The notes beneath the pieces are model-generated. The model was not told where the DNA came from. It searched no databases and saw only the letters and a program-made list of their open reading frames with translations. Of a stretch of 64,000 nucleotides of DNA, positions 4,100 through 28,451 are shown piece by piece (positions within the stretch are counted from its first letter, which is position 1; each line of letters starts with the position of its first letter). The stretch spans positions 288,001 through 352,000 of the forward strand of contig JANNXA010000051.1 in assembly GCA_031409275.1 (NCBI GenBank), in the 5' to 3' direction. The DNA comes from Planctomycetota bacterium (GTDB lineage: Bacteria > Planctomycetota > B15-G4 > SIAN01). The position numbers and the translations under genes are program-made.

Positions 4100-4303
4100 A
4101 TGATCGCAGTGACGCGCATGGACGGCACGCCGTTCGTTCTGAATGCCGATCGCATCGAGAGCGTGGAGCAGGTGCCCGAGACGATGCTGCGCCTGACCAA
4201 CGATCGCCCGCTCATGGTGCGCGAATCCATGGAGGAAGTCGTGCGCGCCTTCAAGGCGTACAAGCGCGAGATCGCGAATCCCGCGTTCAAGGAAGTGACA
4301 TGA
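4100..4303 (+). CDS. flbD: Flagellar FlbD family protein
   Basis: MIAVTRMDGTPFVLNADRIESVEQVPETMLRLTND...VRESMEEVV matches the FlbD pattern; stop overlaps motA start (ATGA). Confidence 0.9.
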   Translation: MIAVTRMDGTPFVLNADRIESVEQVPETMLRLTNDRPLMVRESMEEVVRAFKAYKREIANPAFKEVT

Positions 4304-5890: not shown

Positions 5891-7774
5891 TCACCCCCCG
5901 CCCGCGTAGCCGATCCCCGCAAGCTCCGGGTTGGCGCTCAGGTCGCGTGCATCGATCGCGTTCGGGTGCGGCGTCATGCCGGCGAACGCCTCGCGCAACG
6001 CCGTCTCGAAGGCGGCCACGACGTCGGGTTGCGCCACGGCGAGGTCGTTCTCTTCGCGCGGATCGGCGATCCAATCGAACAGCTGCGCGGCGCGCCTCTC
6101 GTGCCCCACGTAGTGCCAGCGGCCGCGCACGAGCGAGCGCATCGCTCCGTCGTAGCACGGACGGCGGCGGTATTCGGGCCACGGATGGCGCGCAAGTTCG
6201 CCGACCACCAGCGGCAGCGAGTCGGGATCGCCCGCCTCGCCACCGCGGAGCCACGGCGTCAATGACGCTTCCGGGAAGGCCGCGCTCGGCAGACCGGCCA
6301 GATCGAGCAGCGTCGTGGTCACCGAGGCGAGGCTCACCGGAGTCGATACGACCGCCCCCGCCTCGACCACGCCGGGCGCGCGCACGACCAGCGGCACGTG
6401 GAGCGTCTCGCGATGGAGCGAGCCGCGGTGCAGTCGCGCGCCGCGCTCGCCGAACGATTCGCCATGGTCGCTGGTGACGACGATCACGGCGCGTTCCAGA
6501 CGGCCGCGCCGCGCGAGCTCCTCGGCAAGGCGTGACAGCTCGAGGTCCATCGCCAGCACGCACTCGTCGTAGCGACGCGCCTCCTCGGCGATCTGCGCAT
6601 CGTTCCACGGACGATCCTCACCCGCCGCCAGCGGCGGCATCGGGGCCGGCGCGACGCCATCGCCGCGGAAGCGACCGCGCGTCGATGGCGGCGGCTCGTA
6701 CGGATCGTGCGCGTCGAACAGGTTCAACATCGCGAAGAAGGGGCGCTGCGGATCGCCATCGATCCAATCGAGGCAGGCGTCGACGACGGCGGCGGCCGGC
6801 TTGCGCAGCAGGTGGTTGCGCGTGCGCGTGCCCATCCGTTCGAGCGTCTCGCGGCCCGCCAGCGTCGCGGCGAGGCGCGCCGTCCACGACCAGCCGAAGT
6901 CGGAGAAGACCTCGAAGCCGCGCCCGAACCCGAATCCCGTGTGGAAGAAACAGAGGTTGGCCGAGAAGGCACCGGTCCGGTAGCCGTGCTCGGCGAAGCT
7001 CTCCGGCAGCAGCGGCAGCGACCCATCGAGCGGTCCAAGCAGCGCGCCATGCTCGAACGGCAGGCGCCCCGTCAGCAGCGACGCATGCGCCGGCAAGGTC
7101 CAGCTCGAGGTCGAGAAGCAGGCGTCGAAGCGCGTCGCTTCGGCGACGAGGCGCTCGAGCCACGGCGTCGTCGGACGTAAATATCCGTACGCCGAGAGGT
7201 GATCGGCGCGCACCGTGTCCAGCACCACCAGCACGACGTCGCGCGGCGCGCTCGGTGGCGGCGACTTCGGCGCGTGGCGCGAGCGAGCGCCCCCCCATTC
7301 GACCACCCCCATCAGCAACAAGCCGACCGCGATCAGCAGCGGCAGCATGAGGCGCGCCGCGCGGACGAGCCGCTCGCCCCGACGGCGCAGCAGCGCAAAG
7401 GCCGCCGCGCCCACCGCCAGTGCAACGCCAGTGGCGATCAGCCGCGACCATTCGTGCGTCAGGCGGCACCAGTCCCAAGCCAGCAGCGCGATGGCAGCCG
7501 CGGCGCACGGCACGACCCGCTCGCGGACGCGCACGAGGCGCAACAGCAGGTGCAGCAACCACGCCACCAGCCCGAAGAGGAGCCCGTCGACCAGCGGCGC
7601 GACCCACAAGATCTCGCGTCCGCACGAATAGGTGATCGGCCACTGCGAGCGGCGCGCCGCCTGCGCGGCGAGCAGGCCCGCCGCCTCGCCCATGCCGGCC
7701 AGCAGCCCGACCGTGGTGCCGACTCGCCAGGAATCGAACGCGCGCTCGCCCGCACATTTCAGCGTCGTCGCCAT
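5891..7774 (-). CDS. Membrane-anchored sulfatase-fold hydrolase/transferase
   Basis: Several N-terminal TMs; VLDTVRADH, SWTLPAHASLLTG, FDAHDPY, TSDHGE, GIGY C-terminus. Confidence 0.88.
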   Translation of the reverse strand: MATTLKCAGERAFDSWRVGTTVGLLAGMGEAAGLLAAQAARRSQWPITYSCGREILWVAPLVDGLLFGLVAWLLHLLLRLVRVRERVVPCAAAAIALLAWDWCRLTHEWSRLIATGVALAVGAAAFALLRRRGERLVRAARLMLPLLIAVGLLLMGVVEWGGARSRHAPKSPPPSAPRDVVLVVLDTVRADHLSAYGYLRPTTPWLERLVAEATRFDACFSTSSWTLPAHASLLTGRLPFEHGALLGPLDGSLPLLPESFAEHGYRTGAFSANLCFFHTGFGFGRGFEVFSDFGWSWTARLAATLAGRETLERMGTRTRNHLLRKPAAAVVDACLDWIDGDPQRPFFAMLNLFDAHDPYEPPPSTRGRFRGDGVAPAPMPPLAAGEDRPWNDAQIAEEARRYDECVLAMDLELSRLAEELARRGRLERAVIVVTSDHGESFGERGARLHRGSLHRETLHVPLVVRAPGVVEAGAVVSTPVSLASVTTTLLDLAGLPSAAFPEASLTPWLRGGEAGDPDSLPLVVGELARHPWPEYRRRPCYDGAMRSLVRGRWHYVGHERRAAQLFDWIADPREENDLAVAQPDVVAAFETALREAFAGMTPHPNAIDARDLSANPELAGIGYAGGG

Positions 7775-7776
7775 CG

Positions 7777-9732
7777 TCAGCGCTTCCCGTTCACGTAGCC
7801 AAGCGCCTTCAACGCCTCGAGGTCGGCTTCCGGCGCATCGGGATCCTGCGGCGGCGCGAACGGCGGTCCGTGGTAGGCGGGCAGCCGCGCCAGCGCTTCA
7901 TCGAGCGAACGGGAGAGCGCCGCGCACCACTCCGGCTCCGTCGCCGCGAGGTCGACCTGCTCGGTCGGGTCCGCGCGCGGATCGAACAACGCGTCGATGC
8001 GCACGCCTTGCAGCGTGCGGCGCACCAGCTTGCGCTGGCCATCGTCGATCGAGCGCAGCACGGCGGTCAGGTCGACCACGTCGCGATTGAAGCCGCGCGC
8101 ATGCGAGAGCATCTCGAGGTGGCCGAGGTAGGGATCGCCGAAGCCCAGCACCGCGTCGCGCGCGACGAAGCGACCCGGCAGGAGGCTCGCGCCGTCGCTC
8201 TCCTCGCAGAGCGGGCCGTCGGGCTGCGGTCGCGCCACCTCGAGGAAGGTCGGCGCCAGATCGACGAGCTGGCAGCTGCCCGTGACGCGAGTGCCGGCCG
8301 GGATCGTCGGCGGATGACGAATCGCGAGCGGGACGTGCAGCAGCGCGTCGTTCACGGCGAAGACGTGGTCGAAACGGCCGCCGTCGCCGAGGTTCTCGCC
8401 GTGATCGGCGGTGATGGCGACCAAGGTGCGCTCGCGGCCGAGGTGGCGATCGATCGATCCGAGCAGCTGCCCCAACTGCTCGTCCTGGTACTGGGTCGCC
8501 GCCGCGTAGAGCAGGCGCAGCGACTCCTGCAGCGGCCCGGCGAACGGCTTGCCCGCCATCTGCATCGGGCCGTAGTAGCGCCGCGACACGTCGGTCGCGG
8601 TCAGGAGCCGTGAACGCGTCCCCGCCTGCTCGAGACGCTGCAGCAGCGGCGGCAGGAAGCGCCAGTGCGTCTCCATCAGGTTGAGGAAGAGGAAGAGCGG
8701 GCGCTCCGAATCGCGCTCGTACGCGAGGAAGCGCTCGACGCGCGCGACGGCGTCGCTGGCACCGTGGTCGCAGAAGCGCGCCGGCCAGCCGAGCAGTTCG
8801 AAGAGCGGCTGCAACGCGAGGCTGCGCGCGTCGCTGCCGAGCGGCTGCGCGACTTCGAAGCCCTGCAGGAGCTGCGTCTCGAACAGGTACTCGTTGGCGA
8901 CGAAGGCGGCGCACTGGTAGTCGGCGCGATCGCGCAGCGCCTCGGCCAGCGTCGTGAAGCCGGCATCGAGCCAGCGATGGTGCTCGAAGCTGCAGCCGTG
9001 GCTCGGCGGAAAGAGGCCGGTGAAGAGCGACGCGTGCGCCGGCACCGTCCACGGCGCCGGCGAATAGCAGCGTTCGTAGAGGGCGCCCGCGCGCGCGAAC
9101 TCATCGAAATGGGGCGTCAGGCGGCCTTCATGGCCATAGGCGCCAAGGAAGTCGGAACGCTGCGTGTCGAGCACGATCAAGACCTGGTCCGGGCGGCCGC
9201 CATCGCGTGGCGCGACGCTCGCCGCCGCCACCGAATCGGCGCGGCGCAGGAGCGGTGGCGCCGCCAGCAACACGATCAGCGACGCCAGCGCGAAACGCCG
9301 ACGCCGCCGCCACGGCAGCGCCGCCGCGAAGGTCTCGCGGCGCCAGGAGGGGAGCGCGGTGGCGGTGACGGCCACGAGCGCCGCCCCCACCAGCGGCAGC
9401 GGCCAGGCGCCGAACTCGCGCAACACGAGCAGCGACGCCACCGTCGCCACCCACGCCAGCAGCAGCGCCGATCGCCCGCGCCGCAGCCACGGCGCCAGAA
9501 GGAGAATCGCCACGACCAGCACGGGGAGCGTGGCGAGCGTCGCGACGCCTGCGAAGAGCGCGTAGAGGCCGACTGCCGTGAGCTGCTTGTCGAGCGTGCT
9601 CGCGCGCGCATGCAGCAGCACATCGACGACACCGACCGCGACGCCTCCGAGCAGGGCCACGAGCAGGAGTCGACCGAGCAGCGCGACGAAGTTGCAGCGC
9701 GCGGGGGCGGTGTTCAGCGGCGCTTCGCTCAC
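7777..9732 (-). CDS. Membrane-anchored sulfatase-fold hydrolase/transferase
   Basis: N-terminal TMs; VLDTQRSD, PWTVPAHASLFTG, TADHGE, LHVPL, LKALGY. Confidence 0.88.
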   Translation of the reverse strand: MSEAPLNTAPARCNFVALLGRLLLVALLGGVAVGVVDVLLHARASTLDKQLTAVGLYALFAGVATLATLPVLVVAILLLAPWLRRGRSALLLAWVATVASLLVLREFGAWPLPLVGAALVAVTATALPSWRRETFAAALPWRRRRRFALASLIVLLAAPPLLRRADSVAAASVAPRDGGRPDQVLIVLDTQRSDFLGAYGHEGRLTPHFDEFARAGALYERCYSPAPWTVPAHASLFTGLFPPSHGCSFEHHRWLDAGFTTLAEALRDRADYQCAAFVANEYLFETQLLQGFEVAQPLGSDARSLALQPLFELLGWPARFCDHGASDAVARVERFLAYERDSERPLFLFLNLMETHWRFLPPLLQRLEQAGTRSRLLTATDVSRRYYGPMQMAGKPFAGPLQESLRLLYAAATQYQDEQLGQLLGSIDRHLGRERTLVAITADHGENLGDGGRFDHVFAVNDALLHVPLAIRHPPTIPAGTRVTGSCQLVDLAPTFLEVARPQPDGPLCEESDGASLLPGRFVARDAVLGFGDPYLGHLEMLSHARGFNRDVVDLTAVLRSIDDGQRKLVRRTLQGVRIDALFDPRADPTEQVDLAATEPEWCAALSRSLDEALARLPAYHGPPFAPPQDPDAPEADLEALKALGYVNGKR

Positions 9733-11468
9733 GGCGACGATCTCCAGAGGAACGCGCGAATCGCGCCCGCCTCGAACACCGGCTTACCGTAGCGCGCGAC
9801 CAACGTCGCCTCGCGCGTCGCATCGACCTCATCGGCCACCAGGAAGAGCGGCCGCGAGAACGCCGCGAGAGCGCTCTCCTCTTCGATCGGGATCGGCCCG
9901 CCGGCGAGCAGCGCGCGCGTCAGTGCCGCCCGATGCGGCGCCTCGGGGTTCGCGGCGACGAGGTAATGGGTCGCGTAGTCCGTGAAGAGGGCGCGTCCGG
10001 TCAGCGCGGGCAGCTCGGAGGTGTTGCCCGTGGCCATCCGTCCCCGCAGGCCGGCATCACGCACCACCACCGCGTCGCGCGGCGTGCCGTCGCGGACCCA
10101 GCGCAGGAGCTGCGCCTCGGCGTCGCCCTCGCGCGTCCCGTCGCCTTCGCGCTCGAGACGCCCGTCGATGAGCACGAGAGGCAAGGGTGCGCGGCCGCGG
10201 TAGCTCCACAGCACGATCGCGAGCGTCGGTGCGAACGCCGCGAAGAGCAGCAGGGCGCGGCGACGCGTCTGGCGCGGCACCGCGAGCGCATCCATCACGC
10301 CGCGCGGCCGCGGCAGCACGAAGCCAGCCGCCGGGACGCTGAGCAGGACGCACGCCGCGTGGAAGAAGTTGTCCTCGTTGCCGACCGGCAGCGCCAGGCA
10401 ACCCGTGGCCAGCAGCAGCGGCAGCGAAGCGAGCAGGAGCGCGTTCATCAGCGTCCGCGGCGCACCGCCCGCGCGCTTGGCGCCAAACCACGCCGCCACG
10501 AAGAGGAGCCCGCCCGAAGCCGCCATTCCCAGCAGGCGCGTCGTCTGCAGGCGCAGCGCGCCACCGGCATCGCCGCGCCCGAACAGGTGGAGCCACCAGG
10601 GCGAGCTCGCCAGGCAACCGGCGACGAGCGCCATGCCAAGCGCCAGCGCTCGCCGCAGCGGAAACCAGCAGTTCGGCTGCCGCCGCTCTTGCCATGCCGC
10701 TCCGAACAGTCCAAACGCCAGCGCCGCGCCACCGGCGAGGCCGGTGATCGGGCTGAAGAGCGTGCACAACGCCGAAGCGGAGGCGACGCCGGCGAGCGCC
10801 AGCCGGCCGGGCCGCAACGCCGCGAGCACCACCATCAGCACGCACGCCAGCAGCGCTGCGAGCGCGGCCGGACGCGCGGTCAGGTTCACGAAGTAGCTCG
10901 CCAACGGGCCGAGCGTCGCGAAGGGATCGCCGATCCTCATCGCGCCAAGCGCGGGGTGGCACAGCCCCCACAAGTAGTCGCCATCGGCGCAAAATCCCGC
11001 CTTCGTGAAGAGAGCGGCACCGTGCTTCCACCAGCGTGCCAGCAGCACCAGCGGCCCGAACGGATGGGCACCGGCAAAGAGCAGGAAGGAGAGCGCGACG
11101 CCGGCAAGTTCGCTGCGCAACAGCACGCGACCGAGCGCGCCGCCGATCAACACGACCGCCGCCGCCGCCACCAGCGCGATCCACTCGAACGCATCGATCA
11201 GCGGTGCGCCGGTGAGCGACGCCGCGTCGAGCGCTACTTCATGGAAGAAGTAGTAGTAGGGCAGCGGCGTTCCCGCGAAGAGCGGGTTCTCGGGTGGATC
11301 GGGCCAGAGCGTCGGCTCGGTCGCCCGATTCGCGCAGCTCTGCGCGATCGCGACGTGCAGCAGTCCGTGGGCCGAGAGGCGCGTGCGCATGCTGTCGTGG
11401 CGCACCCAGGCGAACAGCACGACCCAGGCAAATGCCAGCAACAGGGTGCGCAGCAGGCCGCGAGTCAT
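9729..11468 (-). CDS. Polytopic membrane protein, GT-C-like glycosyltransferase candidate
   Basis: Start MTRGLLRT at 11468 overlaps the upstream stop; >10 hydrophobic segments; PENPLFAGTPLPYYYFFH loop; extracytoplasmic C-terminal domain (WVRDGTPRDAVV...PALTGR). Confidence 0.65.
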   Translation of the reverse strand: MTRGLLRTLLLAFAWVVLFAWVRHDSMRTRLSAHGLLHVAIAQSCANRATEPTLWPDPPENPLFAGTPLPYYYFFHEVALDAASLTGAPLIDAFEWIALVAAAAVVLIGGALGRVLLRSELAGVALSFLLFAGAHPFGPLVLLARWWKHGAALFTKAGFCADGDYLWGLCHPALGAMRIGDPFATLGPLASYFVNLTARPAALAALLACVLMVVLAALRPGRLALAGVASASALCTLFSPITGLAGGAALAFGLFGAAWQERRQPNCWFPLRRALALGMALVAGCLASSPWWLHLFGRGDAGGALRLQTTRLLGMAASGGLLFVAAWFGAKRAGGAPRTLMNALLLASLPLLLATGCLALPVGNEDNFFHAACVLLSVPAAGFVLPRPRGVMDALAVPRQTRRRALLLFAAFAPTLAIVLWSYRGRAPLPLVLIDGRLEREGDGTREGDAEAQLLRWVRDGTPRDAVVVRDAGLRGRMATGNTSELPALTGRALFTDYATHYLVAANPEAPHRAALTRALLAGGPIPIEEESALAAFSRPLFLVADEVDATREATLVARYGKPVFEAGAIRAFLWRSSP

Positions 11469-12757
11469 CGCGCGGCCCCGGACCGATCGCCGGCGGGCGC
11501 ATCGAGACGCGCGACGAGCTCGCGGCGACCGCCTGCTTCCGCAGCGCGACGCACGACGTCGAGGTAGCGCGGGAGCACCGCCGATTCGCTCCAGTGGTCG
11601 ACGTAGGCGCGCCAGCCGTTTTGGCCGTAGCGAGCGCGCAACGCCGCGTCGCCCTGGAGACGCGCGAGCGCCGCGACGAGCTCCTCCGACGTGGTGAAGA
11701 GCTCGCCGGCCTGCGCCTTCTCGACGATCTCGGGGAACGGCCCGAGGCGCCGCGCGACCACCGGAATGCCCTGCTGGAACGCCTCGATGAGGATGATGCC
11801 GAAGGTCTCGTAGCAGACGCTCGGCACCACCAACGCGACCGCGTTGCGATACCAGCGCGACAGCTCCTCGAAGGCGACGCGGCCAAGGAAGCGGACGCGC
11901 TCGCATCCTTGCGCGAGTTCCTTCAAGACCGCGGCATGTTCGCCATCGCCCGCGATCACCAGGTCCGCCTCGGTGATCCGATCGCGAAACAGCGGGATCA
12001 CGTCGTCGAGGCCCTTGATGCGCTCGAGGCGCCCCACGAAGAGGAAGTAGGGGCGCGCGTGCGGCGAGGGCCCGGGCGCCGGTGGCGGCCCGATCGCGCC
12101 TGGCGGCGGATCGGGAAGGAAGTAGTTCACGACCTCCATCTCGCGCGGGAAGCCGAACTCGGCGTGCTTCGCGCGGCTGAACTGGCTCATGGCGATGAAG
12201 GCGTCGACGTGGTGCAGCTCGCGCTCGAGGTAGCCGGTCGATCGCCACAGCTGCGGCGGACGGCGATACGACAGCACGCACTTCAAGCACTCGCGCCCGG
12301 TGCAGAGCTCCTTGCCGTGGCGCCACAGCACGTGCGACGGGCAGACCAGCCAGTGCTCGTGCGCCATGTAGAGCTTGAGCGCGTCGCCGTACTTGAGCAG
12401 CCCCGGCCCGCCCACCAGCGAGAGGTTGTGGAAGTTGATCACGTCGAAGCGGCCTTCGCGCAGCAGTCGAGCGATGCGCCGGCCATGCACCACCGGCCGC
12501 CCGAACTGCTGCGTGAGCAGGTTGCTGGCGAGGCCGAAGCGCGACCGCAGCGACACCACTTCCAATCCGGGCGGATGCACCTTCGGGGCCGGCTCGCGAC
12601 CAGGCGCGAGGTTTCGCCACGCGTCTTCGTCGTGGATGACGGTGACGTGGTGGCCGCGTCGCAGCAGCCCATGGCAGAGGCGCTCGATGCCGATGCCGTC
12701 GCCGCCGAAGTTGAACGGCGGAAAGAACGTGGTGACCATCGCGAAGCGCAGGCTCAC
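11465..12757 (-). CDS. Glycosyltransferase family 4 (GT-B)
   Basis: GTG start overlapping upstream stop; FFPPFNFGGDG, FVGRLERIKG, ETFGIILIEA (E-x7-E). Confidence 0.92.
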   Translation of the reverse strand: MSLRFAMVTTFFPPFNFGGDGIGIERLCHGLLRRGHHVTVIHDEDAWRNLAPGREPAPKVHPPGLEVVSLRSRFGLASNLLTQQFGRPVVHGRRIARLLREGRFDVINFHNLSLVGGPGLLKYGDALKLYMAHEHWLVCPSHVLWRHGKELCTGRECLKCVLSYRRPPQLWRSTGYLERELHHVDAFIAMSQFSRAKHAEFGFPREMEVVNYFLPDPPPGAIGPPPAPGPSPHARPYFLFVGRLERIKGLDDVIPLFRDRITEADLVIAGDGEHAAVLKELAQGCERVRFLGRVAFEELSRWYRNAVALVVPSVCYETFGIILIEAFQQGIPVVARRLGPFPEIVEKAQAGELFTTSEELVAALARLQGDAALRARYGQNGWRAYVDHWSESAVLPRYLDVVRRAAEAGGRRELVARLDAPAGDRSGAAR

Positions 12758-14313
12758 GCGCGCTCCTCCGCGCCGCGCGCCAGGTCGCGCCAGGACCACG
12801 CGACCACCATCGCCGTGAGCGCGAGCAGCAGCGGCGCCACGAGCGGCGCCCATCCCGGCCCACCCGATGGCTGTGTCTGCCGCCACACCGTGAACCAGGG
12901 GAGCTGCGGGCCGCGCTCGAAGAGCGCGCTCCAGGAACGGGCCACGGTCGACTCGGCGAAGAGGTGCGGCTCGGTCGGCGGCGTGAAGCGCGCCATCGCC
13001 AGCACCAGCGAGTGCAGCGCGAAGGGGGCGACGAGCCACGCGACGCGTCGTGCCGGCCAGCGCACGAACGGCGGCACGGCCAGCAGCGCCAGCAGCGGCG
13101 CCAACGGCGCGAGGCAGCGAAAACCGGTGTTCCACTGCAGTCGCGCGAACTGGTTGGCGGCGCTGAACAACAGGAACGCGAGCGCGAAGAGCAGCACGAA
13201 GGCGCGCTCGCCGCGGGTCAGGAACGCGGGCGTCGCGGCGTTCGCAGCGGCCGACGGCGCCGCTTGCGACGCACGCCACGGCAGCAGCGCGAGCAGCAGC
13301 AGCGGCGCGAACGCGAACAGCCCGTAGCTCGGATCGAAGAGATTCTTCCAGAGGAGGTCGGGCGTCGGCCAGGAGAAGCCGTGGTAGCCGGCGACGCTGA
13401 AGTGGGCGTCCGGCATCCAGTGCTGCGCCGGCTTGAAGGGATCGCCGAACTGCCACCACTGGGTGAAGAAGAGCAGCAGCAGAGGCGGCAGCGCGCCGAG
13501 CGCGAAGGGCAGCGCTCGGCGCCACGCCGCGCGCAGGCCGCCTTCGCGCAGCGCCTCGATCAGCAGCGCGAGCCCGAACGCGGCGACGACCACGGTCCCC
13601 GAGTAGTCGAACAGCAGCGTGCCCGCCGCGCAGGCGCCGGCCGCCGCGAGGCGCCACGAGCCGCGCACGCCGGCGCCGGCCGCTTCGGCCGCGAAGGGTC
13701 GCAGCAGCACGAACGCCGCGAAGGTGAGCAGCGCCTCGAGCTGGTTGTGGTTCAGCAACGCGCTGCGAAACAGCAGCGGGGTGGCGAGCGGGAAGAGCAG
13801 GGCCAACAGCGCCGCGCGTCGAGCCGCGACCCCGCGTCGCAGCAGCTCGCCGTGGAAGAGCAGCGCGAGGAGCGCCGCCGCTGGCGCCATGACGAAGAGC
13901 GCCGTCAGCGCCGCGGCCGCACCGAGCCGCAGGTGGAGCCCGCGCCGACGCACCTCCGCCATGAAGGCGGCGCGGCGCTGATAGGCGCTGTCGAACTGAA
14001 CCGGCTCGTCCTTGGCGGCCGCCGCCTGCCGCTTGCCGATCGCCTCGAGCCAGTCGAGCAGCGGGCTCGCCAGCCACAGGACGGGCGCCGCCAGCAGCGA
14101 GGCGCCGACCTGGTTGTTCGCGTACCAGTGGCCGTCGGAATGGAGGAACAGGTCGGGATGGAGCCCCGCCCACTCATCGCACGCGAGCGTTCCGCGCTGC
14201 GCCAACGCGAAGGCCGGGTAGTGCTCGCGCACCAGGTTCGTCGCGAACAGCAGCGCCGCGACGACGCTGACCGTGGCGAACAGGCGCGCACGCACGAAAC
14301 GCAGCGGCCGCAT
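12754..14313 (-). CDS. Polytopic membrane protein, GT-C-like glycosyltransferase candidate
   Basis: Start MRPLRFV at 14313; many TM segments; DLF...GHWYAN loop, FGDPF, LFDPSYGLFAFAPLL. Confidence 0.65.
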   Translation of the reverse strand: MRPLRFVRARLFATVSVVAALLFATNLVREHYPAFALAQRGTLACDEWAGLHPDLFLHSDGHWYANNQVGASLLAAPVLWLASPLLDWLEAIGKRQAAAAKDEPVQFDSAYQRRAAFMAEVRRRGLHLRLGAAAALTALFVMAPAAALLALLFHGELLRRGVAARRAALLALLFPLATPLLFRSALLNHNQLEALLTFAAFVLLRPFAAEAAGAGVRGSWRLAAAGACAAGTLLFDYSGTVVVAAFGLALLIEALREGGLRAAWRRALPFALGALPPLLLLFFTQWWQFGDPFKPAQHWMPDAHFSVAGYHGFSWPTPDLLWKNLFDPSYGLFAFAPLLLLALLPWRASQAAPSAAANAATPAFLTRGERAFVLLFALAFLLFSAANQFARLQWNTGFRCLAPLAPLLALLAVPPFVRWPARRVAWLVAPFALHSLVLAMARFTPPTEPHLFAESTVARSWSALFERGPQLPWFTVWRQTQPSGGPGWAPLVAPLLLALTAMVVAWSWRDLARGAEERA

Positions 14314-14348
14314 CGTCGTGCGCCCCTCCCTCCAGCGCCGCGTGGCGC

Positions 14349-15842: not shown

Positions 15843-15848
15843 GGCTGC

Positions 15849-16193
15849 TCAAAGACCCCCGGCGGGGCCGCTCACCGGACGAGCGACCCAGTTGTAGACG
15901 CGCGAGACGAGGTAACCGGCGACGAAGCCAAGAGCCGCCCCGTAGGGCAGCGAGAGGAGCAGTCCGCCCCACGTGACGTCGTAACCGGGAAGGAAGTGGC
16001 CGAGCAGACGCAGGTGCTTGCCGACCTGCGGGCCGCCACGCAGCAACAGGATGAGCGTCGCGAGGAAGAGGCAGGAGGCGGACAGCCCCGCCAGCGTCGC
16101 GCCCAGCACGCGCGCATTCAGTCGGGTGAGCACCTCGTCGAGGAGGCGCTCCGACTCGACCTGTTCGAAGATGGTGTCGATCGGCGGTTTCAA
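15849..16193 (-). CDS. Small membrane protein of unknown function (paralog of 16286-16681)
   Basis: TTG start; two hydrophobic stretches flanking GGPQVGKHLRLLGHFLPGY. Confidence 0.7.
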   Translation of the reverse strand: MKPPIDTIFEQVESERLLDEVLTRLNARVLGATLAGLSASCLFLATLILLLRGGPQVGKHLRLLGHFLPGYDVTWGGLLLSLPYGAALGFVAGYLVSRVYNWVARPVSGPAGGL

Positions 16194-16285
16194 GGTTGGC
16201 CTTGCAGCTCCGATTCCAATCGCAGCGAGCGGTCGCTGCTGCCCTGCGCTCCCCGTCGTCGTTCCGGGTCGCGCAACCGTTGTCG

Positions 16286-16681
16286 TCAGATCTCATCCAG
16301 CAGGTGACGTCGCCGCCAGCGATCGCCGCCCGAGCGCAGCAGCACCAGCACGAACCTCAGCGCGAGGTTGCGGAAGGCGGCGATCGCGTAGCCGGCCAGG
16401 AAGCCGGCAGCGAAGCCGTACATCCCGCCGACGGCGGCGCCCGCCGCGTCGACGCGGTAGCCCGGGAAGTAGCTGGCCAGCACCTTCAGGTTCTCGCCAA
16501 CGAACTTCCCGCCCTGCAACCACAGCACCAACGTCGCGGCCGCGACCGCCAACCCCACCGTCACTCCGACCCCGCAGCCGAGCGCGAGCGCGTGGAGGCG
16601 CGTGAAGGCGCGGCGGATGGCCTGCTTGCGCCGCTCCGCCAACTCCTCGACTCGCGTCGCCAACTGCTCGACATCGGCCAT
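16286..16681 (-). CDS. Small membrane protein of unknown function (paralog of 15849-16193)
   Basis: ATG at 16681 preceded by GGAGG; GGKFVGENLKVLASYFPGY aligns with the neighbour. Confidence 0.75.
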   Translation of the reverse strand: MADVEQLATRVEELAERRKQAIRRAFTRLHALALGCGVGVTVGLAVAAATLVLWLQGGKFVGENLKVLASYFPGYRVDAAGAAVGGMYGFAAGFLAGYAIAAFRNLALRFVLVLLRSGGDRWRRRHLLDEI

Positions 16682-16973
16682 CGCGAGCGCGCCTCCGCCC
16701 ATCCGTGCACCGCCTTGCTCGATCCATGAAAGCGCCGACATCGTACCCGCCCTCGCGCCCGCGCCCGGCGCTACGGATCGACCGCGGCAGCCGCGGAGCC
16801 TTCGCAGCGCCGCAAGCCGCGGCCTCGATCGGACGAAGTTGCCGACCGCGGCATCCCGATCACCTCCGCTCAAGGGCGCGCGGCGGGACGTCGAAAGCAG
16901 CTCTTGCCCGCGGGTTTCGCGATCGGCGCTATCTTGCGCGCCGTCCACCCCCCCACCCCTGGATTCAACTCTC

Positions 16974-18170
16974 GTGAGCCTCCCGTCCCGCATCGCTCGT
17001 CATTGGAAGCTCGTTCGGCGCGCGGCGCAGGAGCAGCCCGAGGCGACCCCTCCCTTCCTGATCCTCTTCATCAACAGCATCTGCAACCTCGCGTGCGACC
17101 ACTGCTTCTACTGGAAGGAGCTCAACAGTCGCGACGACTTGAGCAAGGACGAGATCTTCGCGCTGGCCAGGAGCCTCGGGCCGATCGAGAACCTGAACCT
17201 CTCCGGCGGCGAGCCTTTCCTGCGCAAGGAGTTCGCCGAGATCTGCGACTTCTTCGTGCGCAACAACGGCGTCCAGCGCATCTACTGCCCGACCAACGGC
17301 TACTACGCCGACAAGACCATCGCGGCGCTGACCCAGCTGTTCGAGAACCAGGATCTCAAGCTCTTCGCGGCCGAGCTCTCGCTCGACGGCATGCCGCCCT
17401 ACCACAACTGGTTCCGGCGCGATCGTCGCAGCTTCGAGAAGGCGATGGAGACCTACGAGGCTCTCGCCGAGCTGAAGAAGAAGGAGCCCCGCCTCGAGAT
17501 CCATTCGATCTCGACCGTCACGGGCGAGAACCTCGACGAGATCAAGCGCCTCACGACCTACCTCTTCGAGCGCTGCCCGGCGATGACGCACCACAACCTC
17601 GCGATGATCCGCGGGGAGCGCAAGCGTCCGACGCTGATGGGCGTCGAACTGAAGGGCTACCAGGAGCTCGTCGCCTACTCGCGCCGCCTTTGGAGCGCGC
17701 GCGAGGAGGGGCGCCACGGCAGCGTGGTCGACCCGATGCTGCACTGGGCCAAGGTCAAGACCGCGGAAGTCCAATCGCAGTTCGTCCCGTGCAAGGCGGG
17801 GATCCTCTCAGGCGTCGTCTACGCCAACGGCGACGTGTCGTTGTGCGAGCAGCACCCGCCCATCGGCAACATCCGCAAGCAGAGTTTCCCCGAGATCTGG
17901 AACGGCCCGGTGGCGCGCAAGCTGCGCGAGTCGATCGCCTGCAAGGAGTGCTTCTGCACCAACGAAGTCTTCTTGTGGCCGAGCGTCGCGTTCCAGCCGG
18001 TCCCGCTGGCGAAGGCCTTCATCGGCTCGCGCGCATGGCACTACCCGACGGCGCTCGAACCGCATGAGCGCGCCGCCGTGGGCGACCCGTACGACCGCAG
18101 CAAGCTGCCGGCGGAGGCGCTCGCCTACCTCGACGACCCGAAAGGACGCCGCCTCCCGGTCGCGCCGTGA
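16974..18170 (+). CDS. Radical SAM protein with C-terminal SPASM/twitch domain
   Basis: CNLACDHC (CxxxCxxC), SGGEPF, SLDG; C-terminal CKAG...ANGDVSLC...IGNI...EIW...CKECFC. GTG start at 16974 inferred. Confidence 0.92.
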   Translation: MSLPSRIARHWKLVRRAAQEQPEATPPFLILFINSICNLACDHCFYWKELNSRDDLSKDEIFALARSLGPIENLNLSGGEPFLRKEFAEICDFFVRNNGVQRIYCPTNGYYADKTIAALTQLFENQDLKLFAAELSLDGMPPYHNWFRRDRRSFEKAMETYEALAELKKKEPRLEIHSISTVTGENLDEIKRLTTYLFERCPAMTHHNLAMIRGERKRPTLMGVELKGYQELVAYSRRLWSAREEGRHGSVVDPMLHWAKVKTAEVQSQFVPCKAGILSGVVYANGDVSLCEQHPPIGNIRKQSFPEIWNGPVARKLRESIACKECFCTNEVFLWPSVAFQPVPLAKAFIGSRAWHYPTALEPHERAAVGDPYDRSKLPAEALAYLDDPKGRRLPVAP

Positions 18171-18183
18171 TCGACGCCGCGGC

Positions 18184-20241
18184 TCACTTGCCGCGGCTCT
18201 TTGCCATCGATTCGAGCGCGCGGGTCAGCTGCACGCGACGCGCGCTCGCGTCGGCCCACTCCGGCGAATTGCTCGGCAGCACGACGACGAGCCGCGCCAG
18301 CAACGCCTCCGCCTCGCGCAGCAGCGGCTCGGCCGCCGCCGCGTCCTTGCGCTGCAGCAATCGCTCGGCACGCATCGTCAGGAGCCGTGAGAGGAACGCC
18401 AGCGCGTCGGGATGGTCGGGATCGAAGCCGAGCGCCTGGCGCAACGCGGCCTCGGCATGCTCGCCTTCCCTGCGCTCGACTTCGACGTGGGGCTTGGCCG
18501 CCGCGGCCCCGCCTTCCTTGCGCGCGTCCATGGCGCGAGCGTGCGCCGCTTCCGCCGCGAGCTGCGCGCACTGGGCCCTTCCAAACCACGAGCGCACGAG
18601 CCGAGGATCGATCGCGAGCGCGGCATCGAAGGCGGCCGCGGCCTCGACGTAGCGCATCGGCGCGCCGGCCACCAGCATCAGCCCGATCTGCTCGTGCAGC
18701 GGCGCGCTCGACGGATCCTCGGCGACCGCCGCCTGCAATGCCGCAAGCGTCGCCTCGAGCCCCTGCTGCGCGGCGGCCGAGATCGCGGCGTTCATCCGTT
18801 CGTAGGCCGCGATCTTCCGGTACGGATCAGGCAGCTGCGACCAGTCGTCGGGCAGCGCGGCGCCGCTGCCATCGCCAGCCGCGTAGCCCAACGCCTCGAG
18901 TCGACGCCGATCGGCCTCCGACAAGGTCGCGGTCGCCCCGCGCGCCAACGGGCTCACCGCCGCGAGATGCGCCTGCAGCCGACGCGCCAGCGCGGTCGCG
19001 CGCGGCTCGCCTGGCGTGAAGAGGTTCTTCGACTCGGACGGATCGGAAAGGCGGTCGTAGAGCTCTTCCTGCGCGGAACGCAGGTACTTGAGCGATCCGA
19101 GCGTGCAGCCGAACTGCGGCGCCCAACCGAAGTTGAGCCACGCGAACATCGACTCGAGCATCAGCGCGCGCTCGGGCGGCGCGAGCTGAGGATCGGCGAT
19201 CCACGGCAGCAGGTCGAGACCGTCGAAGGAGTCGGTCGTCGCGTCGATCCCCAGCACCGTCAACAGCGTCGGCACCACATCGACGATCGACGTCGGCACC
19301 GTCACCTGCCGCGCCGGCAGCGACGGATGGCGCAGGATCATCGGCACACGCACCGTGGCATCGAACAGGAAGAAGCCATGCGCCTGCTCGAGTCCGTCGC
19401 CGAGCCCCTCGCCATGGTCCGCCACCACCAGCACCACGAGTTCATCCATCAGCCGGCGCGCGGCGAGCTCGCGGAAGAGGCGGCCGAGCTCCGCGTCGAG
19501 ATCGAAGATCTCCGCCTCGTAGAGAGCGCGCGCCACCTGCTGCGGATCGCGCGCCTGGTCGGCATCGATCTGCGGCTTCGACTTCGGGGTGTAGGGCGTA
19601 TGCGGGTCGTAGAAGTGCGCCCACACGAAGAACGGCTTGCGCGTGCCGTCGGGCGGGCCGCCTCCGGGCGCGAGTTCGGAGACATCTTCGAGCACCCGAT
19701 CGACGATGGCGGCGGCCGGCAGCTCCTCCTCCTTCGCGGGGGCACCGGGTCGCGAGACCCCCCGAGGCGGCGCGCGGTAGCGATCGAACCCCTGCGCCAG
19801 GCCGAAGATCGGATCGAGGACGAAGGCGGCGACGTCGGCGCGCGTCGCGTAGCCGGAGTCGCGCAGGATCTCGGCGAGCGTCCGCGCCGCCTCCGGCAGC
19901 TTGAAGCCGGAGTTGTAGCGCACGCCGTGCGCCGTGGGATAGAGGCCGGTGAAGAGCGACGCGTGCGCTGGCAGGGTCACCGGCACCGTCGTCACCGCAT
20001 CCTCGAAGACGACCGAACGCGCGGCGAGGTAATCGAGATTCAGCGTGCGCGAGGGGTCGCGACCGTAGGCGCCGAGATGGTCGCGGCGGGTCGTGTCGAG
20101 CGTGATCACCATCACGTCGCGGCGCACCTTGCCCGCCGCAGCGGCTGGCGCGGCCGGGACCTGGAACGCGCGCGCCGGCGACCCGCCGGCCAGCAGGGCC
20201 ATCAGCGCCAACGCCCACCCTGACATCGTCCGGCTCGTCAT
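18184..20241 (-). CDS. Exported sulfatase-fold protein with C-terminal TPR-like repeats
   Basis: Signal peptide (ARA-FQ); TLDTTRRDH, PVTLPAHASLFTG, YDPHTPY, ADHGE, LEALGY, then helical TPR-like repeats. Alternative GTG start at 20268. Confidence 0.88.
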   Translation of the reverse strand: MTSRTMSGWALALMALLAGGSPARAFQVPAAPAAAAGKVRRDVMVITLDTTRRDHLGAYGRDPSRTLNLDYLAARSVVFEDAVTTVPVTLPAHASLFTGLYPTAHGVRYNSGFKLPEAARTLAEILRDSGYATRADVAAFVLDPIFGLAQGFDRYRAPPRGVSRPGAPAKEEELPAAAIVDRVLEDVSELAPGGGPPDGTRKPFFVWAHFYDPHTPYTPKSKPQIDADQARDPQQVARALYEAEIFDLDAELGRLFRELAARRLMDELVVLVVADHGEGLGDGLEQAHGFFLFDATVRVPMILRHPSLPARQVTVPTSIVDVVPTLLTVLGIDATTDSFDGLDLLPWIADPQLAPPERALMLESMFAWLNFGWAPQFGCTLGSLKYLRSAQEELYDRLSDPSESKNLFTPGEPRATALARRLQAHLAAVSPLARGATATLSEADRRRLEALGYAAGDGSGAALPDDWSQLPDPYRKIAAYERMNAAISAAAQQGLEATLAALQAAVAEDPSSAPLHEQIGLMLVAGAPMRYVEAAAAFDAALAIDPRLVRSWFGRAQCAQLAAEAAHARAMDARKEGGAAAAKPHVEVERREGEHAEAALRQALGFDPDHPDALAFLSRLLTMRAERLLQRKDAAAAEPLLREAEALLARLVVVLPSNSPEWADASARRVQLTRALESMAKSRGK

Positions 20242-20371
20242 CGATTGCGGCTCCCGCGTCCTCGGCACGGCGACACCGTAGCACGCGTGCCCGCAGCGCG
20301 GGAGTCGACGTCGATCGCGAAAGCGATGCGCGTCCGCGGCGGCCTGCGCCAGACGCGGTAGGCTGCGCCCC

Positions 20372-21289
20372 ATGTCGCTTCCCACCGTCAGTGTCGTGAT
20401 CGCCTCCGGAGCAGGAGGCGACTTCCTGTGGCGCTTGCTCGATTCCCTGCGCGAACCGGCACAAGCCGAGCAGGCGCAGGTGCTGGTCGCGGACCGCATC
20501 GGCGGCGCCGTTCGCGAGCGGCTCGAGCGCGACTATCGCTGGCTCACCGTCGTGCCGGTGGCCGCCGGTGCCGACGGCCGCAAGCCGAGCGTTCCGCAGT
20601 TGCGCGCCACCGCGGCGGCGCAGGCGCGCGGCGACCTCGTGGTGGTCCTCGAAGAGCACTGCCGGCCGCCAGCCCATTGGCTGCGCTCGATCCGCGAGTC
20701 GTTCCAGCCCGGCGATGCGGCGATCGGCGGACCGATCCTCGATGACGCGGCCCATCCGCCCGGCTACGTCCGTTGCGATTGGGTCGTGCTGTTCAGCGAG
20801 TACCACAACTACCTGCAGCCGTGGCCCGACGCCGAGCGCGCGCTGCTGAACGGCGCCAACTGCGCCTACCGCCGCGATCTCCTGGCGAAGCACGCGGCGG
20901 CGCTCACCACCGGCTACTGGGAGATGGTGCTCCACCCGAAGCTCGCCGCCGACGGGAAGATGCGCGGGCTGCAGCGACTCGGCGTCCACACGATGGGGCC
21001 GTTCCGCTACCGCTACTACCTGCACCAGCGCTACCTGCTGGCGCGCGTCTGGGGTGCGATGCAGCGCGAAACGGCGCCGGCGGCGAAGCGCTGGTTCTAT
21101 CTGCTCGCGGCGCCGCTCTTCCCGTTCCTGCTCCTGGCGCGCATCACGGCGCGCGTGCTGAAGAGCCCGTACCTCGGCCAGTACCTGCTGACGCTGCCGA
21201 TGCTGCTGCCGGTCGCATTCACCTACGTGCTCGGCGAATGGAGCGGCTACGCCTTCGGCTTCGGCGACTCGCTCGAGGAGGTCGAATAG
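20372..21289 (+). CDS. Glycosyltransferase family 2-like protein
   Basis: PTVSVVIAS, ARGDLVVVLEEH, GANCAYRRD; hydrophobic C-terminal helices. Confidence 0.8.
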   Translation: MSLPTVSVVIASGAGGDFLWRLLDSLREPAQAEQAQVLVADRIGGAVRERLERDYRWLTVVPVAAGADGRKPSVPQLRATAAAQARGDLVVVLEEHCRPPAHWLRSIRESFQPGDAAIGGPILDDAAHPPGYVRCDWVVLFSEYHNYLQPWPDAERALLNGANCAYRRDLLAKHAAALTTGYWEMVLHPKLAADGKMRGLQRLGVHTMGPFRYRYYLHQRYLLARVWGAMQRETAPAAKRWFYLLAAPLFPFLLLARITARVLKSPYLGQYLLTLPMLLPVAFTYVLGEWSGYAFGFGDSLEEVE

Positions 21290-21291
21290 AG

Positions 21292-22212
21292 GTGGCCACC
21301 CCCGAACTCTCCGTCGTCGTCGGCCTCATCTCCGGCAAGCTCGCCGACCTTGAACGCTGCCTCACGGCGCTCGCCGCGCAACAAGGCGCGCCGCCCTTCG
21401 AGATCCTCGTCCCGTACGACGAGCCGTGCCGCGATGCGCTGACGTTGCAGTCGAAGTTTCCTGACGTGCGATTCCTGCCGCTCGACGGCGTCGACACGCG
21501 CGCCGCGCGCGCCGGCGGCAGCCGCGAGCACCACGACACGCTGCGCACGCTCGGCATGCGGGCGGCGCGAGGGCGCTTCGTCCTCCTCACCGAAGACCAC
21601 GCCCACGCGCAACCGGGCTGGTGCGCGGGACTGCTGAAGGGACTCGCCGACCACCCGAAAGCGGGCTGCATCGGCGGCGCCGTCGAATGCGGCGGCGCCG
21701 GCCTGCTCGCCTTCGCGGTCTACCTGTGCGACTTCGGCCGTTACATGAACCCGCTCGCCGATGGCCCCGCCTGGTACGTGAGCGACAGCAATGTCTGCTA
21801 TCGGCGGGGCGTCCTCGACGAGGTCGCCGAGGCGTGGCGCGGCGACTACCACGAGACGATCGTGCACGGCGCCATCGCCGCGAAGGGCCATGAGCTGCGC
21901 CTCACGCCGCGCGTCGTGGTCTGGCAGACGCGCTCGGGCCTCACGCTCGGCGAGGCGCTCCGCGAGCGCTACGTCTGGGGCCGCTCGTTCGCGGGCAGCC
22001 GCGTCGCCGGCGCCGGAATGGGGCCGCGCCTCGTCCGCGCCGCCCTGACGCCGCTGCTGCCGTTCGTGCTCACCGCGCGGCTCGTGAACGGAGTGCTGCA
22101 GAAGAAGCGCGCCATCGGTCGCATGATCGCCGCGCTGCCGCTCCTGTTCCTGCTGTCGACGGTCTGGTCGCTCGGCGAACTCGTCGGCTACCTCACAGGA
22201 CGACCCCGATGA
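21292..22212 (+). CDS. Glycosyltransferase family 2-like protein
   Basis: GTG start 2 nt after upstream stop; PELSVVV, ARGRFVLLTEDH, SNVCYRR; paralogous to the preceding gene. Confidence 0.8.
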   Translation: MATPELSVVVGLISGKLADLERCLTALAAQQGAPPFEILVPYDEPCRDALTLQSKFPDVRFLPLDGVDTRAARAGGSREHHDTLRTLGMRAARGRFVLLTEDHAHAQPGWCAGLLKGLADHPKAGCIGGAVECGGAGLLAFAVYLCDFGRYMNPLADGPAWYVSDSNVCYRRGVLDEVAEAWRGDYHETIVHGAIAAKGHELRLTPRVVVWQTRSGLTLGEALRERYVWGRSFAGSRVAGAGMGPRLVRAALTPLLPFVLTARLVNGVLQKKRAIGRMIAALPLLFLLSTVWSLGELVGYLTGRPR

Positions 22213-24254
22213 GAAGTGCGCTGCCGATTGCGCTCTTTGCCACCGTCGTGGCCGCCACGCTCGCCGCTCGCGCCGCGCCGCGCGGCGCGCAGGCGACGCC
22301 CCCCGAACCGGCGAGCGCTGCGCCAAGCAAGATGCCGCGCAAGCCCGACGTGCTGCTGATCACGCTCGACACCACGCGGCGCGACTACCTCGGCTGCTAC
22401 GGCAGGAGCCCGTCGCCGACGCCGGTGCTCGACGAGTTCGCGCGCAGTGCGGTGATCTTCGACGATGCGCTGACCGTCGCGCCGCTGACCTTGCCGGCGC
22501 ACGCCTCGCTGATGACCGGCCTCCACCCCTTCTCGCACGGCATCCACGACAACTCGCTCTACCGCCTTCCGGAGGCCGCGCACACGCTCGCCGAGATCCT
22601 CCACGAAGCGGGCTACGCCACCGGCGCCGCGATCGCATCGTTCGTCCTCGACCCCGTCTTCGGCCTCGCGCAGGGATTCGACCGCTACCAGGCGCCGCCG
22701 CGCGGCGTGTCGAGCAGCCGCTCGCTCCACTTCACCGAGCTGCCGGCTTCGACGCAGATCGATCGCGCGCTCGCGGACCTTTCGCAGCTCGGTCGTCCTG
22801 GCGAGCGACCGCCGTTCTTCTACTGGCTGCACCTGTTCGACGTGCACGCCCCCTACACCCCCAAGCAAGCGCCGCAGTTCACCTCCGCGCAGGCGCTCGA
22901 GCGCAAGGGCGCCTTGAAGGTGCTCTACGAAGCGGAGCTGCACGAGATGGACCACGAGCTCGCCCGCTTCTTCGGGGCGTGGCAGCACAACGGCGGCTTC
23001 GAGAACAGCATCGTCGTCGTCTGCGCCGACCACGGCGAAGGGCTCTCCGACGGCCCCGAAGAGACGCACGGCTACTTCGTCCACGACTCGACCATGCGCG
23101 TGCCGCTGATCTGGCGCGAGCCGGGACTCGCGCCGGCGCGCGTCGCGACGCCGGTGTCGCTGGTCGACGTCGCCCCCACGCTGCTGGCGCGAGCCGGCAT
23201 CGATGCGAGCGCCGAGAGCTTCGACGGCCTCGACCTGTCGCCCTGGCTCGTGCAGCCGGAGCAGCCCGCGCCCGACCGCGTGCTGCCCTTCGAGAGCTGG
23301 TACGTCTGGCTCAACTTCGGCTTCGCGCCGTTCGAGGGCGCCACCAACGGCGCGCTCAAGTACGTCCGTTCCGCGCGCGAGCAGCTGCACGACCGCGTCG
23401 CCGACCCCCTCGAGCAGAACGACCTGTTCAGCCCCGACGACGCGCGCGCCATCGGCCTGCGCCGCCGCCTCGCCGCCGCGCAGGCCGCGGCACAACCGCT
23501 GTCGCGAGCGAATCCGGCGCTTTCGGAAGCCGATCGCGCCGCGCTGGCCGCGCTGGGCTACGCGCAAGGCGGAACGACCGCCGAGCTGCCGAGCGTCGAC
23601 TGGTCCACTCTGCCGGATGCCTACACGAAGCAGGCCGCCATCACCGGCTTCGACGCGCTGAGCGGAGCGCTGGAGCGCTCCGACTGGAACGGCGCGTTGG
23701 CGTTGCTGAGAGAGCTCGTCGCCCGCGAGCCCACCAGCGCGATCTTCCACGAGCAGCTCGGAATGATGCTGATCAACCTCGGCCCGCAGAACGCGGACGA
23801 TGCGATCCAGCAGCTGCAGCGCGCGATCGAGCTCGACCCGCGCCGCTCCCGCGTCTGGTTCGCGCTGGCGCGCGCCTTCGAGGCGAAGGCGACGGCGGCG
23901 CGCGTTCGGAAGGACGACGCCCGCCAACGCTCTCGCGGTCGCGAAGCCAAGCAGGCGGGCGAGGAAGAGCGCGCGTACCTCGCAAAGAGCCAGCACGCCG
24001 CCCGTGAATCCCTGCGACTCGAGCCGAACTACCCCGACGCGCTGCTTTTCCTCGGTCGCATGATGATGCTGGATGCCGAGAAAGCGTGGGCCGCTGGCGA
24101 TCGAGCCACCGCGCGCCCCCTCTACGCCGAAGTCGCGGCGCTCTCCGATCGCTTCTTCGTCTCGGTCGGCGGCGAAGGACCCGACACCGTGCCCGCCGCC
24201 GCCGTGCGCGATCACGCCCGGAAGCGGCTCGCCGAGATCGACGCCCGCCGCTGA
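22209..24254 (+). CDS. Exported sulfatase-fold protein with C-terminal TPR-like repeats
   Basis: Signal peptide; TLDTTRRDY, PLTLPAHASLMTG, ADHGE, LAALGY, TPR-like AIELDP...WFALA. Confidence 0.88.
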   Translation: MRSALPIALFATVVAATLAARAAPRGAQATPPEPASAAPSKMPRKPDVLLITLDTTRRDYLGCYGRSPSPTPVLDEFARSAVIFDDALTVAPLTLPAHASLMTGLHPFSHGIHDNSLYRLPEAAHTLAEILHEAGYATGAAIASFVLDPVFGLAQGFDRYQAPPRGVSSSRSLHFTELPASTQIDRALADLSQLGRPGERPPFFYWLHLFDVHAPYTPKQAPQFTSAQALERKGALKVLYEAELHEMDHELARFFGAWQHNGGFENSIVVVCADHGEGLSDGPEETHGYFVHDSTMRVPLIWREPGLAPARVATPVSLVDVAPTLLARAGIDASAESFDGLDLSPWLVQPEQPAPDRVLPFESWYVWLNFGFAPFEGATNGALKYVRSAREQLHDRVADPLEQNDLFSPDDARAIGLRRRLAAAQAAAQPLSRANPALSEADRAALAALGYAQGGTTAELPSVDWSTLPDAYTKQAAITGFDALSGALERSDWNGALALLRELVAREPTSAIFHEQLGMMLINLGPQNADDAIQQLQRAIELDPRRSRVWFALARAFEAKATAARVRKDDARQRSRGREAKQAGEEERAYLAKSQHAARESLRLEPNYPDALLFLGRMMMLDAEKAWAAGDRATARPLYAEVAALSDRFFVSVGGEGPDTVPAAAVRDHARKRLAEIDARR

Positions 24255-25763: not shown

Positions 25764-25771
25764 CGCGGTGA

Positions 25772-26524
<753 letters not shown>

Positions 26525-26564
26525 GGTCAGCTGCGCTTCCGCTGCTGGCTGGCGACGAGGCGGC

Positions 26565-28397: not shown

Positions 28398-28451
28398 GTC
28401 AGCACTCCTTCGTCACGACCGCCGCGGCGGCCTCGAACTGCGTCCGTTCGG

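Follow-up and report, generated by a model that had tools for sequence, protein, structure and literature searches.

The stretch examined here raises the question of what a compact run of membrane, glycosyltransferase and sulfatase-fold genes does for a bacterium when the run answers to no named pathway. The run occupies positions 5891-24254 of the window, by which we mean the whole 64-kb stretch analysed (Planctomycetota bacterium assembly GCA_031409275.1, contig JANNXA010000051.1, positions 288,001 to 352,000). We assign a probability of roughly 0.6 to the reading that these genes make up one half of a modular, conserved set, which would build unusual sugars on a polyprenyl-phosphate-type lipid and transfer them, outside the inner membrane, to an envelope acceptor.

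Gene content of the cluster

All genes listed in the initial annotation, which was made from the letters of the DNA, were present in the window with the reading frames and codon bias it had described. They are as follows (aa, amino acids; GT, glycosyltransferase; GT-C, glycosyltransferase of the C fold; NDP, nucleoside diphosphate; SAM, S-adenosylmethionine; TPR, tetratricopeptide repeat).

5891-7774, minus strand: S1, membrane-anchored Thr-type sulfatase/alkaline-phosphatase-fold enzyme (627 aa; PF00884 and PF01663 over cut-off)
7777-9732, minus strand: S2, second membrane-anchored Thr-type enzyme (651 aa; Thr229)
9729-11468, minus strand: GT-C2, GT-C-fold membrane protein with a C-terminal soluble domain, DUF2298-related (579 aa; predicted model and Foldseek)
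11465-12757, minus strand: GT4 glycosyltransferase, a distinct orthologous group and core member (430 aa; domain match and co-occurrence)
12754-14313, minus strand: GT-C1, GT-C-fold membrane glycosyltransferase (519 aa; predicted model and structure search)
14349-15842, minus strand: PRK07208-family flavoprotein, predicted NDP-sugar pyranose-furanose mutase (497 aa; NF005548)
15849-16193, minus strand: smA, small two-helix membrane protein of the short-tailed subtype (114 aa; TTG start)
16286-16681, minus strand: smB, paralogue of smA, long-tailed subtype (131 aa)
16974-18170, plus strand: radical SAM enzyme of a conserved family that has no name, its auxiliary domain short and twitch-like (398 aa)
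18184-20241, minus strand: first of two exported TPR proteins with a Thr-type sulfatase fold, likely passenger
20372-21289, plus strand: GT2a, divergent GT2 ending in membrane helices (305 aa; weak PF00535)
21292-22212, plus strand: GT2b, paralogue of GT2a (306 aa)
22209-24254, plus strand: second exported Thr-type sulfatase-TPR protein, likely passenger

Coordinates and overlap letters, re-read from the window, agreed with the three 4-nucleotide (nt) overlaps reported for the minus-strand run, GTGA at 12754-12757, ATGA at 11465-11468 and GTGA at 9729-9732. The remaining intergenic gaps of this run were 2, 6, 35, and 92 nt, and a fourth 4-nt overlap joined GT2b to the second sulfatase-TPR gene on the plus strand. 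A genome of the same genus (loci L001 and L002) kept the gene order, and two more genomes kept part of it. Those homologues that carry a name indicated Planctomycetota.

Co-occurrence across genomes and phyla

Co-occurrence was counted in a single set of 301 Planctomycetota genomes with one E-value threshold per gene, below which matches are unseen. The family of small membrane proteins was present in 29 genomes, 20 of which held at least two copies, and the GT4 orthologue (E 1e-60) was found in exactly the same 20 genomes as the pair. The radical SAM enzyme (10 genomes) and GT-C1 (13 genomes) occurred entirely among these 20, as did 15 of the 16 genomes with GT2b, and the flavoprotein family was present in 71 genomes, including all 20. 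The carriers span eight families, patchily within them (1/8 in family f4 and 1/7 in f9), and in several the pair and GT4 lie on different contigs. Hypergeometric values overstate this co-occurrence, because related genomes are not independent. All 17 pair loci that were fetched were glycosylation loci, 13 of them with a PRK07208-type gene in the stretch; none of the three single-copy small-protein loci had glycosylation genes.

Broad alignments of the small proteins varied too much to serve in a DNA pattern scan, and the radical SAM gene was used instead as the seed for a wider survey. Its best 80 matches, assigned to phyla by record titles, came from Acidobacteriota (39), Gemmatimonadota (12), Planctomycetota (8), Proteobacteria (8), Chloroflexota (5), and others, and apart from one close relative they were 50-66% identical to the enzyme of the window. 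The family extends across about ten phyla, where the neighbours are alike and their order is shuffled. Neighbours were counted at 79 loci, many of them short, leaving out the close relative: GT2b at 35, a Wzx-like gene at 29, the GT4 orthologue at 26, a second GT4 and a deacetylase at 24 each, GT2a at 21, the small pair family at 16, the flavoprotein and GT-C1 at 15 each, and GT-C2 at 1. Among the 50 long loci, 47 held at least one family of the module, 24 held five or more, and 3 held none; the radical SAM locus of Ruegeria (L207) is without the module, and that of Pseudanabaena (L202) also has GT2 pairs. Radical SAM matches of 31-34% identity in family f4 were set aside, as all eight loci lacked window genes nearby.

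The order GT-C1, GT4, GT-C2, S2 was seen in 5 of 80 metagenome GT-C1 loci, all close relatives, and the other metagenome GT-C1 loci contained variable glycosylation genes. Locus L163 carries GT4, S2, GT2a/b, the radical SAM gene, GT-C1, and GT-C2 in a different order. The neighbourhood comparison proposed with the initial annotation therefore came out in its favour, in the 20 of 301 genomes shared by the pair and GT4 and in the recurring radical SAM neighbours.

GT-C1 and GT-C2

The two polytopic proteins had been described as GT-C-like, and Foldseek together with a wide structure search gave both a GT-C fold. Their predicted models were confident, with predicted local distance difference test (pLDDT) values of 92 for GT-C1 and 86 for GT-C2. 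GT-C2 matched STT3, PglB, DPY19, and ArnT in Foldseek (best E 8.5e-7; E of 0.001 or lower in 29 rows) and aligned with DPY19 at Z 19.6 and a root-mean-square deviation (rmsd) of 5.7 over 472 residues; PF10060 is listed for 11 of its 19 homologues. Foldseek returned no match for GT-C1 at E 0.001, and its top rows were nonetheless all GT-C. In the wide search GT-C1 was closest to Pmt1 (Z 19.6, rmsd 5.0, 386 aligned), then ALG12 and ArnT, and 20 GT-C-fold rows ranked above unrelated ones. Glu30 is invariant in the first loop of GT-C1. In the first loop of GT-C2, at the place of the acidic catalytic residue usual in GT-C enzymes, His34 and His38 are invariant.

Flavoprotein

The gene labelled FAD oxidoreductase does encode a flavoenzyme, of a less generic kind than that label implied, since it resembles UDP-galactopyranose mutase (UGM) over its full length. 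It passed NF005548 (PRK07208, labelled hypothetical protein) with 471 bits against a cut-off of 389. Its closest solved structures were UGMs, among them the T. cruzi enzyme (E 1.1e-25, residues 7-458). PMC4192007 lists ten active-site residues of UGM, and eight of these catalytic or diphosphate-binding residues are retained (equivalents of His62, Arg176, Tyr317, Arg327, Tyr395, Arg423, Tyr429, and Asn433). The eight did not vary in any of the 33 rows that scored at least 250 bits, some of these rows being the same locus fetched twice. As these positions are kept and invariant, mutase-type chemistry is likely, and the protein is predicted to be an NDP-sugar pyranose-furanose mutase. The full-length match and the eight equivalents are the likeness to the UGMs of T. 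cruzi and A. fumigatus and to bacterial Glf. The protein differs from these in two changed positions (Val63 to Arg and Asn201 to Ile, from the printed alignment) and in scoring below the TIGR00031 cut-off (52.5 against 303.75), and members of its family are often fused to a membrane domain.

GT4, radical SAM enzyme, and GT2 pair

GT4 has four conserved cysteines in an insert, C-x13-C-x4-C-x2-C, a pattern that may bind a metal or an iron-sulfur cluster. The radical SAM enzyme has the CX3CX2C motif and invariant C273, C291, C326, and C328. It passed no NCBIfam model; its closest PDB match had E 9.3e-10, and its twitch relative by sequence is SkfB. BtrN, HygY, and SpeY are twitch radical SAM enzymes that act on sugars. 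The motif and the short four-cysteine auxiliary domain are what the enzyme shares with the twitch group; it differs in that no recurring precursor-peptide neighbour was noticed, though none was specifically sought. GT2a and GT2b are 28% identical and usually found together, and they carry E-E-H and E-D-H, respectively, at the position where GT2 enzymes usually carry DXD. A plasmid search gave no match for the radical SAM enzyme and two weak matches for GT2b, and no RNA holder came up.

Small membrane pair

smA and smB are 34% identical, and their profile collected 1648 representatives at E 0.001. A Pfam scan for fusions, covering 33 of the best 150 representatives, detected a flavoprotein domain in four, GT2 in three, a methyltransferase in one, and Wzy_C in one (P0147); tandem doubles of the small domain were common. 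Three of the 17 pair loci and five of the 80 radical SAM loci contained fusions to the mutase, and the subtype fused in relatives is the long-tailed one (B, smB). Each of the 26 loci examined had a single B copy with the long tail, accompanied by one or more A copies with the short tail. The subtype labels cluster on the tree (3 changes for three groups, against 20.7 when shuffled); neither subtype is strictly one clade, and the tree's bootstrap is not settled. These data suggest that smA and smB form a heterodimer. The chance that the pair acts as a scaffold is about even, a flippase role is possible and somewhat less probable, and a role that is neither of these is improbable.

No relative of the small proteins or of GT2b was found in the PDB search. 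PF18926 (DUF5676) scored 11 bits, below its cut-off of 27.6, and was weak in 24 of 64 members; Atlas feature clusters placed the small proteins with hypothetical/DUF5676 proteins and the radical SAM enzyme in a generic cluster. Comparison with the GtrA profile gave a probability of 0.1% in a shallow test with only four GtrA rows. GtrA itself was present in one of five pair carriers and one of five non-carriers, and the source genome has one GtrA elsewhere. None of the Pfam families listed for the small proteins is a PIG subunit. At locus L132 the pair is interrupted by a transposase-like reading frame. In family f50 (L125, L126, and L130) an LpxB-like gene and rpsB-tsf are close to the flavoprotein and the pair, which hints weakly that lipid A is the acceptor there.

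Thr-type sulfatase-fold enzymes

The Thr motif had been ascribed to the two membrane genes; T-x-P-x-H is in fact carried by all four sulfatase-fold genes of the cluster (Thr226 in S1). The C/S-x-P-x-R motif of type I (formylglycine) sulfatases was found in none of the four, which have Thr and His instead. We take the Thr to match the nucleophile of NPP, LtaS, and EptA. By hydropathy, S1 and S2 each begin with several membrane helices, and their charged loops predict an outward-facing catalytic domain. The closest PDB sequence matches of the Thr-type enzymes were sulfatases, and the EptA/LtaS/MCR cut-offs of NCBIfam were missed (best 43 bits against 500). With LtaS, EptA, and NPP-type transferases and the archaeal Agl30/Agl31 they share a membrane anchor and an alkaline-phosphatase-fold domain, but they lie far below all NCBIfam cut-offs. 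Phospho-transfer by the Thr-type enzymes is plausible.

In a FastTree phylogeny of 89 rows, from which rows without a readable domain start were left out, S1 grouped with the distant loci L188, L041, and L035 (support 83-93) and S2 formed a clade with the differently ordered L163 (support 100). The two sulfatase-TPR proteins (48% identical to each other) joined only close relatives and one paralogue of their own genome. The membrane enzymes S1 and S2 are optional add-ons of the system, and the two TPR enzymes are likely lineage-specific passengers. The whole genome has about 54 sulfatase-fold reading frames, whose motifs, where read, were mostly Thr-type and never C-x-P-x-R (11 unread, some misregistered).

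Second locus and left flank

Neighbour families absent from the window matched, by profile search, one stretch of contig C49 (21800-37600, partly covered by L143). Its members scored 457 bits (GT-C), 473 (DPM-like GT2), 324 (PF03706), 730 (second flavoprotein), 422 (GT4), 234 (deacetylase), 337 (GT2), and 233 (Wzx-like); the Wzx-like score is well under member scores, and the representative of the DPM-like family was below named cut-offs. Acyl-CoA dehydrogenase and carrier-protein-like genes come next on C49. The window thus contains half of the system; the families that it lacks are at this second locus and in the left flank.

A NAD-dependent epimerase of the module's family (391 bits) is located some 5 kb to the left of the window. 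The left flank (C51:280979-288930, L144) also contains a PMT_2-type GT-C, another Thr-type enzyme, and further membrane genes, in an order kept in L145. The earlier statement that no wzx or NDP-sugar genes were recognised holds by name and within the window; it does not hold for the genome, given this epimerase and the Wzx-like gene of C49. For NDP-sugar genes it is true by name alone, because the flavoprotein is mutase-like. No polymerase was seen among the window proteins.

Proposed pathway

The genes, folds, and co-occurrence found would be accounted for by the following chemistry. The mutase-like flavoprotein would supply an NDP-furanose, and the radical SAM enzyme would oxidise or epimerise a sugar. 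GT4, GT2a/GT2b, and the GT2s of C49 would load the lipid with sugars, from which the C49 deacetylase would remove an N-acetyl group, while an smA-smB heterodimer would tether GT4 and the mutase to the membrane. The flippase-like and Wzx-like proteins of C49 may carry the intermediates across the membrane, where GT-C1, GT-C2, and the C49 GT-C would perform the transfer. S1 and S2 would then act as LtaS and EptA do, forming an intermediate on Thr and attaching groups by phosphodiester bonds. For the acceptor, a glycolipid or lipid-anchored glycan is the most likely candidate. A bolder version, which we offer tentatively and regard as rather unlikely, is an undescribed envelope glycolipid pathway of GPI-like logic in about ten phyla, in which smA/smB would be a new heterodimeric lipid-sugar flippase or scaffold channelling furanose from the tethered mutase and the radical SAM enzyme would catalyse a new sugar reaction.

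Several observations weigh against the lipid-carrier reading. Gene content varies between loci. GT-C2 was next to the radical SAM gene at 2 of 80 loci, and sulfatase-fold genes were so at 7 of 80; 10 of the 20 carrier genomes gave no radical SAM match; and the flavoprotein family, being in 71 of 301 genomes, is not specific to the system. The co-occurrence used a single threshold per gene among related, non-independent genomes. The first loop of GT-C2 is without a conserved acidic residue at its start, and the Thr-type neighbours may be there by chance because the genome has so many such frames. The lipid-linked sugar model of the initial annotation keeps its core, by the GT-C folds and the co-occurrence, with changes: the system is modular and extends to a second locus, sulfatase-fold genes are seldom beside the radical SAM gene, and the TPR enzymes are confined to close relatives.

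Alternative explanations

An ordinary mosaic locus for a Wzx-exported polysaccharide of the O-antigen or exopolysaccharide type, with the GT-Cs adding side branches as in three-component systems, appears unlikely. It would fit the Wzx-like genes at 29 of 79 radical SAM loci and on C49, the Wzy_C fusion in P0147, and NDP-sugar genes that vary among relatives. However, the exact match of pair and GT4 and the 50-66% radical SAM identity across phyla are unlike serotype-type variation, and the window shows no polymerase. The acceptor might instead be an exported protein, with GT-C2 or GT-C1 as oligosaccharyl- or mannosyltransferase, as DPY19, Pmt1/4, STT3, and PglB are among the top structural matches and GT-C2 shares their C-terminal soluble domain. 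The lipid- or glycan-acting ArnT, ALG12, and Aft lie within a few Z units and the fold does not fix the acceptor, and we rate a protein acceptor as improbable.

It is doubtful that S1 and S2 add sulfate rather than phospho-groups, like Agl30/Agl31 of Halobacterium. Sulfate stays a rival because PMC11980604 reports that glycan sulfation in that organism depends on two sulfatase-fold proteins, the membrane protein VNG1056C and VNG1057C. The sulfatase matches in the PDB agree with it, as do cysN/cysC sulfate-activation genes directly after GT-C1 in L040-L042; these cys genes are at just 3 of 80 GT-C1 loci, the nucleophile position holds Thr, the motif Arg is replaced by His, and PF01663 is also over cut-off. 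Far less probable, and rejected here, are small proteins acting as holins and a hopanoid head-group (HpnI/J/K-type) cassette. smA and smB matched NF037947 (holin_4) weakly (28 and 36 bits, cut-off 70), and their 17 fetched pair loci are glycosylation loci. The combination of GT2, deacetylase, and radical SAM genes resembles Hpn cassettes, but no HpnH/I/J/K model was over cut-off; the highest HpnJ score, seen among the neighbours in other genomes, was 181 for a cut-off of 578.

Relation to known systems

PMC11127046 describes three-component extracytoplasmic glycosylation systems (GtrA/GtrB/Gtr*, ArnC-D-E/F-T, and a Citrobacter pentofuranose system). With these the lipid-carrier gene set shares a lipid-sugar synthase-like GT2, flippase-like proteins, GT-C transferases, sugar-converting auxiliary enzymes, and a deacetylase. 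It differs in adding GT4, the GT2 pair, the mutase, the radical SAM enzyme, several GT-Cs, and Thr-type enzymes, in the lack of a GtrA match for the small pair in the shallow test, and in a furanose that an NDP mutase would supply in place of phosphoribosyl pyrophosphate. No flippase was recognised within the window, the PF03706 and Wzx-like genes being on C49. By analogy, the set would work like a three-component lipid-carrier system yet equals no named one.

A looser resemblance is to glycosylphosphatidylinositol (GPI)-anchor and mycobacterial phosphatidylinositol mannoside/lipoarabinomannan synthesis, with a GT4 that has small membrane partners, a deacetylase, a lipid-sugar donor, GT-C elongation, and alkaline-phosphatase-fold transferases. 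This is an analogy only; the small proteins have no PIG-subunit Pfam match and no anchor-transfer enzyme was identified. The view that no named pathway has this combination was upheld, as no NCBIfam system model was passed by the window proteins and 23 neighbour representatives except PRK07208 and a generic flippase-like domain. No description of the system was found in a literature search that left subscription papers mostly outside and did not cover supplements. Searches for PRK07208, DUF5676, or Planctomycetota with GT-C terms found no paper, those for DUF2298 and for radical SAM twitch envelope gave unrelated titles only, a motif search gave nothing, and further searches brought up general papers only.

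The reading ties several unnamed families (PRK07208, the near-'holin' small membrane proteins, the radical SAM enzyme, two GT-Cs, and Thr-type 'sulfatases') into one testable pathway. Its hosts include Planctomycetota, Acidobacteriota, Gemmatimonadota, and Chloroflexota, phyla with poorly described envelope glycans. If true, it would define a new family of membrane partners or flippases, give PRK07208 a class of substrates, and add new radical chemistry on sugars.

Other genes of the window

One further feature stands outside the cluster.

688-2616, plus strand: further membrane sulfatase-fold gene, abutting S1 in relatives

Genes of this type and S1 adjoin directly in L001, L013, L019, L046, and L048. 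In the window they are separated by a 411-aa gene and flbD-motA-motB (2641-5840), a block that looks like an insertion because its flanking genes adjoin in those five loci. Beyond the cluster, the window has a MacB-type efflux operon (24498-30506), a membrane protein of the YfhO family (39078-41774), and another sulfatase-fold gene (45103-46653).

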